From: Escherichia coli
GTDB lineage: Bacteria; Pseudomonadota; Gammaproteobacteria; Enterobacterales; Enterobacteriaceae
Direction: 5' to 3' (one strand)
Length of the DNA: 64,000 nt
Assembly: GCF_003790525.1 (NCBI RefSeq)
Contig: NZ_CP033635.1
Position numbers: made by a program. Shown piece after piece: positions 60,001-64,000 of the stretch. Every line of letters begins with the position of its first letter. The first letter of the stretch is position 1.

Positions 60001-63000
60001 CAAAGTGAAAAAAATGAACTTAGCCTGACCGCATCCTGGATGCCGCTGGAATTTGACCCTGCCGATAATGACGATTATGCCATGCAACAGCTTGATAAGC
60101 GTGATAGTACGGCTATGGCGGGGGTTGCCTGGTATCACCACGAGCGTTGGGGAACCGTGAAAGCCTCTGCGGCTGCGGACGTTCTGGATAACAGCAACGG
60201 CTGGGTGGGTGAGCTATCGGTATTCCACAAAATGCAGATAGGTCGCCTGTCGCTGACACCTGCGCTGGGCGTTCTCTATTATGACGAGAATTTCAGTGAC
60301 TATTACTATGGCATTTCAGAGAGTGAGTCCCGTCGTAGCGGTCTGGCAAGTTATTCCGCGCAGGATGCCTGGGTGCCCTATGTCAGCCTGACGGCAAAAT
60401 ACCCGATAGGAGAGCACGTCGTATTGATGGCGAGCGCCGGATACAGCGAGCTGCCGGAAGAGATTACCGACAGCCCGATGGTTGATCGTAATGAGAGTTT
60501 TACCTTTGTCACCGGCGTGAGCTGGCGTTTTTAATTCACCGGTGGATGTCGGTGCGGCTGGCCTACGTTCTCGCACCGACTCGTGGGCCTGATAAGACGC
60601 GTTAAGCGCCGCATCAGGCAATGTGCACCCTACGGTGGATGCGGCGCGAGCGCCTTATCCAACCTACGGATGGCAATGCTTTTCCTCATTCACCCAGATC
60701 CGCATTTCGCCTTCACCCCGGTTAGCCCAGCTAAACCACGGGATAAATGTCAGAGTTTGCGGCTGGCGTTTGGCTGGGGCATAGTCGTAATGCCACAGCG
60801 GTTGCTGCTCTGGATTGCTCTGTTCATACCGGTAACCCGGTGCCTGGATTAAGATCTTATGGCGGAACAATCCCTTGCCTTCAAATGTCGTAAATGGCGC
60901 ATCGGCGGGCAGCCACAGGTTATGCAGTGACTCGCCGTTGTCGGCCTGTTCCAGGCAATACACCAGCGGGCCGCGCTGAATCGCCACTTTTCCGGCGACG
61001 TGACGCACCAGCGGGTTACCGTAAACGCGACGTACCGGCATTGGCAACGTCAGATTCAGCGTGTCGCCCTCCTGCCATTCGCGGGTAATGTGCAAATACC
61101 CTTTACGAATATCCTGCTCGACCTCTTCCCCATTCAATGTAATCTGCGGCTGTGTGCACCAGTCCGGCAGACGTAAAGCCAGCGTATGACGCACCGGCTG
61201 GGGCGATTCAACCGCAATTGTCACCTGTTCCTGCCACGGATAGTTTCCGCTAACCCGCAGGCGCAACGTGCCATTTTCTACCGGCACTTCCATGCTGTTT
61301 CCTGCGTATATGTTGATATACAACGCATCTTCACGCGGCGTGTAGAGATAATGACCAATCGAGGTTAGCACGCGGGCGATATTTGGCGGACAACAAGCGC
61401 AACCAAACCAACGCTGGCGGATCGGCTTAACGTGATCGTAGATATGGTTGAATTTCAGCGATTTTGGATGTACTTCCAGCGGATTCACATAGAAGAAATG
61501 TTTGCCATCCAGCGCCATGCCGCCGAGCACGGTGTTGTACAGTGCGCGCTCCATCACATCGGCATATTGACTGTCGCCTTCCATTTCCAGCATTCGCCGG
61601 GCGAACATCATCAGGCCGATGGAAGCACAGCTTTCGGCGTATACCGTGTCATTCGGCAGATCGTAATCGCTGCTGAACGCTTCACCGCTGCTCTGTGAGC
61701 CAATGCCGCCGGTAATATATAACTGACGCTGGGCCATATTGTTCCACAGCCGCAAGCAATCCTGACGCTTGCTTTCATCGTGACTTAAACGCGCGAGATG
61801 CGCGACGCCGGTCATCAGGTAGACAAAACGTACCGCGTGACCAATGGCGGTTTGCTGCTGTGCGATGGGCAAATGTGCCTGGCTGTAGGCTTTGTCTTTC
61901 ACCATCCACGCCGGGCCGTAGGTGTGCCAGTGCGAGGTCTGCCCGCGCTTTTCATATTCCTGGTCGTAATAGTGCGGTTGCGCACCACGCTGTTCGACAA
62001 AATAGTTCGTCAGCGCCAGGTAGCGCGGCTCTTCGGTCACTTCATACAGGCGCATTAGTGCCAGTTCAATTTCCGGGTGACCAGGATAACCGTGTAACTT
62101 ACTTTCATCTGGACCAAATACGCTGTCGATATGATCGGTCAGACGGCAAACCACTTCCAGCAAGCGCCGCTTGCCCGTAGCCTGGAAGAAGGCGACTCCG
62201 GCTTCAATCAGATGACCCGCGCAGTAAAGTTCATGACACTCCGCCAGATTGCTCCAGCGTTCTTCGGGCGCTTTTACCGTAAAGTAAGTATTGAGATAGC
62301 CATCTTCACACTGGGCGGAGGCGATCAGTTCAATCACCTCGTCGGCGGTTTTTTCCAGTTCGGCGTCCGGCTTCTGGCACAGCGACCAGGCTACCGCTTC
62401 CAGCCATTTGGCGACGTCGCTGTCCTGAAACACCATCCCGTAAAATTCACCGTCTTGCAGTCCTGCGGCAATGCGAAAGTTTTCAATCGCATGGCTGGGT
62501 TCCGCTTCTGGGATACGATCGTTCAAGGCGTCCCACTGATAAGGAATCACCACATCGCGGACCAGTTGTTGGTACTGACCGAGGAACGGATCGCTGACCG
62601 TCAGTTTATGCAGATCGACTTCCGAAATGTTCATCTTGTGCTCCTTAAGGCTGTACATGACGCTGACGCAGGTCGCTAGCAATGCGTGACATCATAGGGT
62701 TATTGAGTTTGCAAAAGCGGATCGCCATCGCCAGCAGCAGGTGGAACAGCGCAGGCAGCAATGTTTCCATTGCTGTGATCCCGCCAAGCGAACTGGCGGT
62801 CTGGTTTTCCACGCCTGGCTGGTAGGCGACAAAAATAAACAGCAGGCTGATGATCCCGGCGCTGGAGGCCCAGGCCAGCTTGATGAAAAACAGATTGAAG
62901 GCGAAGTTCATGCCGGAAGAACGTACGCGGGTTTTCCACTCGCCGTAGTCATCGGCAAAGGCCATCAATGAGAAGTGCAATGGCAATGTGAAGCCAAGAA

Positions 63001-64000
63001 TCACGCCATTACCGAGGATCACCGCCAGCCACAGCGTTTGATAAGCCGGGCTGGAGGGCAGGAACCACATCAACACCGCCAGCGCAGCGAGGAGCAGGTT
63101 GGTGTAGTAATAAATTTTGACGGTATCGAAACGCCGCGTTAACGGGCTGACAATCACCGAGCCGATAATGGAGGCGAAGGTGACCATAGTGAAGAACAGC
63201 GACGTGTAGCCCGTACTGCCTTGTAAGACGTAGGTAATGAAGTACATATACCCACCGCCGCGAATATTAAAGACGTTAATCAGCAGGAAAGACATGACCA
63301 GCATCAGCAGCAGTTGGTCGTTGTTCCGCAGCCCGGCAAGATGTTCGCGCAGGGTAAATTTCCCCATTGTGGAGAGTGGCACCCGTTCACGAACCCAGAA
63401 GAAACAGCACAGGAACATCACCACAGCGATGGCGCACAGCACGCCGACGCCCAGTTGATAGCCGCGCGCGGCATTACCCTGACCGAAGAGATCTACCATC
63501 CACGGTAAGCCTACCGAAACCAGAAATCCCGCCACGCCGCAGAGAACGAATCGCCAGGACTGGCAGGAGATCACTTCATTGTGGCGGGTGGTCATGGTGT
63601 TGATCAGCGCGCAGTACGGCACGTTGATGGCGGTATAACCGACTGAAAGGAGCAGGTAAGTGCCGAACGCCCAGGCGATTTTTACTCCCATGCTGGCATC
63701 TGGCACGGTGAACGTCAGGATGCCGATAATGCCGATGGGAATGGCAATCCACAACTGCCACGGACGAAAGCGCCCCCAGCGACTTTGCGTCCGGTCGGCA
63801 ATGACGCCCATCACCGGGTCGGAGATGGCATCAAACACGCGCAGTGCAATAAACAGCGTGCCGACCAGCGCCGGAGTTAAGCCAAAAACGTCGGTGTAGA
63901 AAAAGGTGAGAAAGTTCATGATCAGGCAAGTTATTACGGTGCCGCCTGCGTCACCCAGGCCGTAGCCTATTTTTTCCCGTACAGATAACGCATCGTCAAT

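Follow-up and report, generated by a model that had tools for sequence, protein, structure and literature searches.

An ancestral symporter–GH127 glycosidase operon between yiaT and sgbE of Escherichia coli, lost by deletion in K-12 and predicted to act on beta-L-arabinofuranosides

In E. coli K-12, GPH-family symporters are paired with cytoplasmic glycosidases at yicJ-yicI, yagG-yagH, melA-melB and uidA-uidB. The locus described here has the same layout, a GPH cation symporter adjoining a predicted cytoplasmic glycosidase, but its enzyme belongs to GH127, whereas the partners in those pairs belong to GH31, GH43, GH4 or GH2. The closest solved relative of this enzyme is the beta-L-arabinofuranosidase Ara127N of Geobacillus stearothermophilus T6 (4QJY/4QK0). 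Ara127N comes from a Gram-positive thermophile, where it is part of a large arabinan-utilisation cluster; the E. coli enzyme, in contrast, has just two partners, a GPH symporter and a regulator of the AraC type. In Bifidobacterium longum, HypBA1 is an intracellular retaining glycosidase with a cysteine nucleophile in a Zn(Cys3-Glu) site, and it cleaves the imported beta-L-arabinofuranosyl disaccharide beta-Ara2; uptake there is through an ABC transporter that has its own binding protein, and the disaccharide is released by a GH121 enzyme that the cells secrete (PMC8106489). The E. coli locus differs in having a GPH symporter and in encoding no secreted enzyme able to release beta-arabino-oligosaccharides. 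It would therefore depend on substrate freed by plants or other microbes.

The window analyzed is a 64,000-nucleotide stretch of E. coli SMS-3-5, at the end of which the two genes lie on the minus strand and are transcribed in the order symporter, hydrolase (Table 1). The initial annotation had described a co-directional pair 10 bp apart, and the sequence gives exactly that spacing: the minus strand reads ...CCT TAA GGAGCACAAG ATG across the junction, with a Shine-Dalgarno TAAGGAG overlapping the symporter stop codon (62645–62647). A longer hydrolase frame from a TTG at 62682, taken from a mechanical ORF list, was rejected: it overlaps the symporter and is unsupported by homologue alignments, and RefSeq starts the gene at the ATG at 62634. 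The shared strand, the short spacer, an adjacency kept in ∼70 species representatives and a single upstream control region identify the pair as an operon, which is presumably co-transcribed. The operon had also been placed downstream of yiaT. It does adjoin yiaT, but the two are convergent (yiaT, 59794–60534, plus strand), so it is not transcriptionally downstream of that gene. A REP/BIME-type palindromic element between them matches the Rfam naRNA4 family (65.9 bits against a gathering score of 59.5) and is the probable 3′-end structure of the GH127 transcript. A terminator scan 3′ of GH127 found only these REP hairpins and no intrinsic terminator.

Table 1. Features of the symporter–GH127 locus (window coordinates)
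Feature	Position	Strand	Basis
GPH-family glycoside:cation symporter CDS, codons 16-466 + stop	62645..64000	-	RefSeq 'MFS transporter' WP_000204817.1, TIGR00792
Spacer between symporter stop and GH127 start	62635..62644	-	10 nt, read from sequence
GH127 glycoside hydrolase CDS, 656 aa, RefSeq WP_001026864.1	60664..62634	-	RefSeq annotation, Pfam, PDB matches
E318, aligned to HypBA1 acid/base Glu322	61681..61683	-	sequence, alignment
E334-S-C336, aligned to HypBA1 Zn ligands Glu338, Cys340	61627..61635	-	sequence, alignment
CACCPPN motif, residues 412-418	61381..61401	-	sequence reading, 3WKW alignment
Sole GH127 segment surviving in K-12 (pseudogene ysaD, b4649, 90% identical)	60772..60961	-	K-12 comparison
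REP/BIME-type palindromic element, directly 3′ of GH127 stop, between convergent yiaT and GH127	60586..60664	-	Rfam RF02564 + inverted repeats
Deletion 1, absent from K-12: REP element + GH127 3′ end	60562..60771	.	BLAST of K-12 junction against SMS-3-5 locus
Deletion 2, window part of 4021-bp segment absent from K-12	60962..64000	.	BLAST of K-12 junction against SMS-3-5 locus

The hydrolase had been recognized as a DUF1680/GH127-like enzyme with a Cys-rich CCPPN motif, and Pfam, PDB matches and its RefSeq name ('glycoside hydrolase family 127 protein') all place it there. Its three-domain architecture is complete, with a catalytic (alpha/alpha)6 domain (PF07944, residues 12–427, E = 1.1e-111) followed by middle (PF20736, 438–532, 4e-24) and C-terminal (PF20737, 534–649, 4e-25) beta domains. 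Ara127N has the same three-domain length and the same CACCPPN, and both enzymes are without HypBA1's N-terminal insertion. In HypBA1, Cys417 is the nucleophile, Glu322 the acid/base, and Glu338, Cys340, Cys417 and Cys418 make up the Zn site (PMC8106489). Alignment to the HypBA1 structure 3WKW matches C414 to the nucleophile and C415 to the ligand Cys418, and every residue aligned to a HypBA1 active-site position is identical in the E. coli enzyme. The catalytic residues on which the initial annotation had made its family assignment depend are therefore present, and E318, E334, C336, C414 and C415, together with the GHPEIE, GHAVR and YVNPLE motifs, are invariant in 81 orthologues. With all four ligands of the (Cys)3-Glu site in place (E334, C336, C414, C415), the protein is predicted to bind Zn2+. 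In a hydropathy scan the protein showed neither a hydrophobic segment nor a signal peptide, which points to a cytoplasmic enzyme.

Homology predicts beta-L-arabinofuranosidase activity (EC 3.2.1.185). Ara127N scores 787 bits with 55% identity over 628 aligned residues, and HypBA1 scores 515 bits, but 55% identity to a characterized enzyme is not enough to settle the aglycone or the linkage. The importer and cytoplasmic enzyme could instead serve a different substrate: another of the furanoside-like sugars that GH127 members handle, such as aceric acid or 3,6-anhydro-D-galactose, or a glycoside of plants or microbes that has yet to be described. GH127 is polyspecific and includes alpha-1,3-(3,6-anhydro)-D-galactosidases, the only NCBIfam match of the hydrolase is an aceric-acid hydrolase model, and the triad of regulator, symporter and hydrolase is self-contained, with flanks that vary between species and say nothing about substrate. 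However, that model (NF049879, a BT1003-type GH127 equivalog) is matched in two stretches and with 457 bits where its curated cut-off is 950, and the score of the Bacteroides 5MQO chain is only 326 bits, so we rejected identity with the aceric-acid hydrolase. Both beta-L-arabinofuranosidases score higher, the aligned active-site residues are those of HypBA1, and neighbourhood annotation contains no sulfatase, carrageenan or RG-II genes near the module. We therefore regard another substrate as rather unlikely.

The symporter had been assigned to the GPH family, and its match to TIGR00792 upholds membership of these glycoside-pentoside-hexuronide:cation symporters, TC 2.A.2, at 334 bits against a curated cut-off of 231.35 and over model positions 1–437 of 437. 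The protein has 466 residues; its first 15 codons lie outside the window, and the full gene would extend to ∼64045. A crude hydropathy scan finds ∼11 separate hydrophobic clusters. The nearest more specific NCBIfam models are YagG (357 bits, cut-off 610) and the YicJ type (326 bits, cut-off 836), and since these scores fall far under the cut-offs, the symporter represents a distinct GPH subfamily. It aligns full-length to MelB (4M64), spanning MelB residues 3–448, and R69, D72 and D76 coincide with Arg52, Asp55 and Asp59 of the helix-II cation site. Because MelB Asn58 is replaced by Ser75 and Asp124 by Asn141, Na+ coupling like that of MelB is not assured, and H+ may be the coupling ion. The substrates of GPH transporters cannot be assigned from sequence.

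The initial annotation had proposed looking beyond base 64000 for a regulator, and a divergent AraC-family gene does lie just past that base; in the RefSeq annotation it is followed by sgbE and the remainder of the yiaK-sgbE operon. Its product combines an N-terminal AraC-type cupin ligand-binding domain (PF02311 AraC_binding, residues 26–132) with a C-terminal double HTH (PF12833 HTH_18, 184–263; PF00165). AraC is its best NCBIfam match, at only 60 bits against a cut-off of 208, and we rejected it as an AraC equivalog. The 226-bp divergent region between regulator and symporter contains strongly conserved blocks, including GTCGGAAT...TACT...CCTTGTTG, which are kept across many genera, and a promoter scan of this region returned no consensus sigma-70 promoter. 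The two observations together fit an activator-dependent promoter. The control region also holds one CRP consensus site with two mismatches (L001 12643–12658), which is not significant alone, as the locus has 5 CRP-like sites against 7.2 expected by chance. We keep it as a weak lead, to which the cross-species conservation of GATC...TCACA lends some weight.

Taken together, these features probably describe a three-gene glycoside-scavenging unit, in which a regulator, an importer and a cytoplasmic GH127 glycosidase would serve to cut a beta-L-arabinofuranoside. The most likely course is cation-coupled uptake of the glycoside followed by cytoplasmic cleavage to L-arabinose; we infer the substrate, the coupling ion, the regulator's effector and co-transcription from sequence. 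The AraC-family regulator would probably switch on the promoter that precedes the symporter, a weak one that needs an activator, and the symporter would import a small beta-L-arabinofuranoside. Among possible substrates, beta-L-arabinofuranosyl oligosaccharides, for instance Araf-beta1,2-Araf, are the best candidates; they could derive from the pectins or hydroxyproline-rich glycoproteins of plants. Lacking a signal peptide, the GH127 enzyme would then cleave the imported glycoside in the cytoplasm, with a cysteine of the Zn(Cys3-Glu) site as nucleophile and a glutamate as acid/base, and the L-arabinose produced would enter the core araBAD pathway.

The history of the locus can be read by comparison with K-12. 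The initial annotation named yiaK-sgbE as a different operon at the corresponding K-12 position. The two are not alternatives: SMS-3-5 has both, and the module is located between yiaT and sgbE without replacing yiaK-sgbE. K-12 indeed has neither of the two genes, only two scars between yiaT and sgbE that are curated as pseudogenes. Of these, ysaD is a 190-bp remnant of the GH127 gene and ysaC (b4648) a 102-bp remnant of the AraC-family regulator; both are non-functional fragments, whereas the window holds the intact ancestral genes. They arose from two deletions. The first has a 6-bp GGCTGG microhomology at its junction, and the second runs to ∼64982, removing the symporter entirely and the greater part of both GH127 and the regulator. 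Because K-12-type genomes keep internal remnants of GH127 and the regulator at this site, the gene-less state is the derived one. The module is an old one among enteric bacteria; SMS-3-5 did not gain it but keeps the ancestral state, which deletion has ended in K-12.

This evidence bears directly on whether the module could be a horizontally acquired island of some E. coli lineages, inserted beside yiaT. Its presence varies among strains, and between SMS-3-5 and O157:H7 Sakai the dS of its genes (0.10–0.14) exceeds that of yiaT (0.025). GH127 genes of 72% identity also occur in Bradyrhizobium, where the neighbours, a peptidase-like protein and an unknown, are uninformative. Yet the internal remnants at the K-12-type site contradict acquisition as an island, and the locus annotation lists no integrase, tRNA or mobile-element genes flanking the module. 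Moreover, the order sgbE, regulator, symporter, GH127, yiaT, yiaU is shared by Citrobacter, Enterobacter, Lelliottia, Pseudocitrobacter and Huaxiibacter. Acquisition as an island is thus highly improbable.

The triad is conserved in ∼66 other Enterobacteriaceae species representatives, often at the sgbE/yiaT position, and ∼20 of these keep the whole sgbE ... yiaT-yiaU synteny. Where it lies elsewhere, its neighbours are unrelated and variable between species and give no clue to the substrate. Another genome carries a paralogous symporter–GH127 pair with a LacI-type regulator, so the transporter and enzyme travel as a unit. Among 5426 complete E. coli genomes, 2314 (∼43%) retain the full module, 2460 have the K-12-type scar and ∼650 have neither, which bears out the initial description of a strain-variable module. 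Five alleles were seen: the full module, the ysaC/ysaD scar, an aldB|sgbE deletion, a HicAB variant, and an O157 type without yiaJ-sgbE.

The locus is a deletion hot spot with several independent rearrangements, and with ∼57% of complete E. coli genomes lacking the module and a consensus promoter absent, the operon might be a cryptic or decaying relic without current function, heading for a K-12-like loss. Selection speaks against this. All three reading frames are intact, and between the phylogenetically distant strains SMS-3-5 and Sakai dN/dS is 0.055 for GH127, 0.076 for the symporter and 0.069 for the regulator. The triad is under strong purifying selection, in contrast to the K-12 remnant, which has drifted to 90% identity, and many genera have kept the triad together with its promoter blocks. 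A relic is accordingly improbable, and a maintained glycoside-scavenging unit remains the reading we prefer.

The genes themselves are already known: they are correctly named in RefSeq, the K-12 remnants are curated pseudogenes, and the operon is an uncharacterized member of known families. The searchable literature yielded no biochemical or genetic study on any of the three E. coli proteins. In one pangenome study, IBD isolates were compared and the GH127 gene was found to cosegregate with their invasion of epithelia, which is a correlation only (PMC11879602). Tentatively, the triad could be the enterobacterial route for scavenging beta-L-arabinofuranosyl oligosaccharides such as beta-Ara2 that other microbes of the gut or of plants set free from extensins or pectins, bifidobacterial GH121 being one example, with the GPH symporter in the role of the ABC importer. 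That O157:H7, SMS-3-5 and invasive isolates from IBD retain it while K-12-type lineages have lost it might then be a niche determinant rather than neutral noise.

If the function we propose is correct, many E. coli and most Enterobacteriaceae would be able to obtain L-arabinose by a route of their own from beta-linked arabinofuranosides, a class of plant-derived nutrients studied so far mainly in Bifidobacterium and Bacteroides. The reference strain K-12 cannot show this route. Such a route could then help to account for differences in fitness between lineages in gut or plant habitats.

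The initial annotation placed a symporter gene and a hydrolase gene, co-directional and 10 bp apart, downstream of yiaT. The pair is real, since both genes lie on the minus strand with exactly 10 nt between them (minus strand CCT TAA GGAGCACAAG ATG), and the TAAGGAG ribosome-binding site of the hydrolase gene overlaps the symporter stop codon. However, the pair is convergent with yiaT, and its order needs refinement: the symporter is transcribed first, from a start 15 codons past the window end, and the hydrolase second. A long, TTG-initiated hydrolase ORF from a mechanical ORF list was rejected in favor of the RefSeq coding sequence. 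The 3.4-kb stretch is 100% identical, in reverse orientation, to the chromosome of E. coli SMS-3-5 (NC_010498.1), and the SMS-3-5 record supplies the regulator sought beyond position 64000: a divergent AraC-family gene (271 aa; AraC_binding and HTH_18 domains) 226 bp upstream of the symporter. Directly after it come sgbE (annotated araD) and the remaining yiaK-sgbE operon. Thus, the module amounts to an insertion or deletion of three genes between yiaT and sgbE and does not replace yiaK-sgbE, once proposed as the alternative occupant in K-12; in SMS-3-5 the two stand side by side.

Features of the module, its K-12 remnants and its flanks
Feature	Window position	Strand	Basis or remark
Fic-family protein gene	~53749-55044	+	L001 (SMS-3-5 locus record) 2214-3509
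yiaT	59794-60534	+	RefSeq
K-12 deletion 1	60562-60771		6-bp GGCTGG microhomology at junction
REP/BIME element	60586-60664	-	Rfam naRNA4 RF02564, 65.9 bits vs gathering 59.5
'glycoside hydrolase family 127 protein', 656 aa	60664-62634	-	RefSeq
K-12 GH127 fragment, 190 bp, internal	60772-60961		90% identity; pseudogene ysaD (b4649)
K-12 deletion 2, 4021 bp	60962 to ~64982		
CACCPPN motif, GH127 residues 412-418	61381-61401	-	sequence
'MFS transporter' (symporter), 466 aa	62645 to ~64045	-	RefSeq
Divergent control region	~64046-64270		L001 12511-12735; just past window end
K-12 regulator fragment, last 102 bp			pseudogene ysaC (b4648)

K-12 lacks an intact copy of either gene and of the module as a whole, retaining two fragments between yiaT and sgbE. 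Two deletions explain this state, the smaller of which also removed the REP/BIME element that lies directly 3′ of the GH127 stop codon, where yiaT and the GH127 gene converge. As anticipated, the module is strain-variable: among 5426 complete E. coli genomes, 2314 carry it whole, 2460 have the K-12-type junction, and ∼650 hold no module-derived sequence. Rearranged loci (NZ_CP048920.1, NZ_LR025101.1, NC_002695.2 4488034-4493326) include that of SCU-101, where aldB is fused straight to sgbE and yiaWVUT and the module are missing; that of EC-1639, where hicAB replaces yiaWVUT and the module is intact; and that of O157:H7 Sakai, where the module is present (ECs4457-4459) and the entire yiaJ-sgbE operon is missing. 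With five or more alleles, the aldB-yiaJ interval is a hot spot for rearrangement. NZ_CP048920.1 has an additional DUF4862 gene between yiaM and yiaL. A Fic-family gene between yiaY and aldB in SMS-3-5 also occurs in Sakai (ECs4465) and SCU-101; K-12 is without it at that position.

With each species represented by a single genome, a scan returned 263 relatives, and among the best 80 of these ∼66 Enterobacteriaceae species representatives have the regulator-symporter-GH127 triad, including Citrobacter, Klebsiella, Enterobacter, Kluyvera, Pantoea, Raoultella, Leclercia, Buttiauxella, and Salmonella diarizonae. Some 20 of the ∼66 keep the whole sgbU-sgbE / regulator / symporter / GH127 / yiaT / yiaU order. 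This synteny, together with the K-12 remnants, rules out an acquired island and shows the module to be ancestral and repeatedly lost. Between SMS-3-5 and Sakai, dN/dS is low (GH127, 0.055; symporter, 0.076; regulator, 0.069) and the three genes contain no stop codons; thus, they are maintained by selection. Their dS in this comparison (0.10–0.14) exceeds the value for adjacent yiaT (0.025) four- to sixfold, a hint that recombination histories differ on either side of the REP element. Enterobacteriaceae bacterium MGYG-HGUT-00110 carries, besides the orthologous triad (L031), a second, paralogous symporter-GH127 pair (L081 6578-9956), each protein ∼70% identical to its E. coli counterpart, behind a LacI-family rather than an AraC-type regulator. 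This arrangement indicates that transporter and enzyme together form the functional unit. Several Bradyrhizobium species have GH127 genes 71%–72% identical to the E. coli protein, with unrelated neighbors and neither symporter nor AraC regulator alongside; identity this high is unusual between alpha- and gamma-proteobacteria and suggests horizontal transfer.

The GH127 assignment is borne out by a complete architecture (Pfam PF07944, PF20736, and PF20737). The sole NCBIfam match, to an aceric-acid hydrolase, scored 457 bits, far under its cut-off of 950, and that identity was rejected. The closest solved relatives are GH127 beta-L-arabinofuranosidases: 4QJY from Geobacillus stearothermophilus, which scored 787 bits with 55% identity across 628 positions, and Bifidobacterium longum HypBA1 (3WKW), which scored 515 bits. 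Two Bacteroides chains are more distant (6EX6, 388 bits; 5MQO, 326 bits). GH127 is polyspecific, however, with 3,6-anhydro-D-galactosidases and an aceric-acid hydrolase among its members, and a different substrate is conceivable, if rather improbable. HypBA1 uses Cys417 as nucleophile and Glu322 as acid/base, with Zn2+ bound by a (Cys)3-Glu site (PMC8106489). All have equivalents here: C414 and E318 align with the catalytic pair and E334/C336/C414/C415 with the ligands, the Cys-rich CCPPN motif noted at the outset being present within CACCPPN. None of these residues varies among 81 orthologues, nor do the GHPEIE, GHAVR, and YVNPLE motifs. Since a scan of the protein found neither hydrophobic segment nor signal peptide, the enzyme is predicted to be cytoplasmic.

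The proposed GPH identity of the symporter holds as well (TIGR00792, 334 bits; curated cut-off 231). It aligns with MelB end to end, conserving Arg52, Asp55, and Asp59 (R69, D72, and D76) and replacing Asn58 with Ser and Asp124 with Asn; we tentatively propose coupling to a cation, probably H+. The divergent control region yielded no consensus sigma-70 promoter, and a 16-species alignment revealed invariant blocks upstream of the symporter (GATC-N-TCACA, GTCGGAAT, TTTTT-TACT, CTTGTTG, and GCAGAAT). Both observations fit an activator-dependent, possibly CRP-assisted promoter. The blocks probably bind the AraC-type activator and perhaps CRP; the CRP-like site is not significant by itself. In EDL933, the gene Z5000 (“putative regulatory protein”) is listed with strong RpoS dependence in stationary phase, at an expression ratio of 48 (PMC2907692), and, judged by gene order, may encode this regulator.

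The best-supported model is that the AraC-type regulator would switch on the operon, the symporter would take up a small beta-L-arabinofuranoside, and the cytoplasmic Cys/Zn GH127 enzyme would hydrolyze it to L-arabinose for araBAD. Here we infer substrate, coupling ion, effector, and co-transcription alike. The proposed scheme resembles that of B. longum, in which imported beta-Ara2 (Araf-beta1,2-Araf) is cleaved by an intracellular GH127. However, the E. coli module has a GPH symporter in place of an ABC importer and, unlike the B. longum system, no secreted releasing enzyme, so E. coli would rely on pre-released substrate.

We found no functional study of the operon from E. coli or other enterics in the literature searched. 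According to one pangenome study (PMC11879602), which bases its functional assignment on HypBA1, the E. coli GH127 gene and invasiveness cosegregate among IBD isolates. All components belong to well-described families, and their RefSeq gene names are already correct. Overall, the module is an uncharacterized member of known families, of low general interest but a reasonable target for work on plant-glycan scavenging and lineage-specific metabolism in E. coli.
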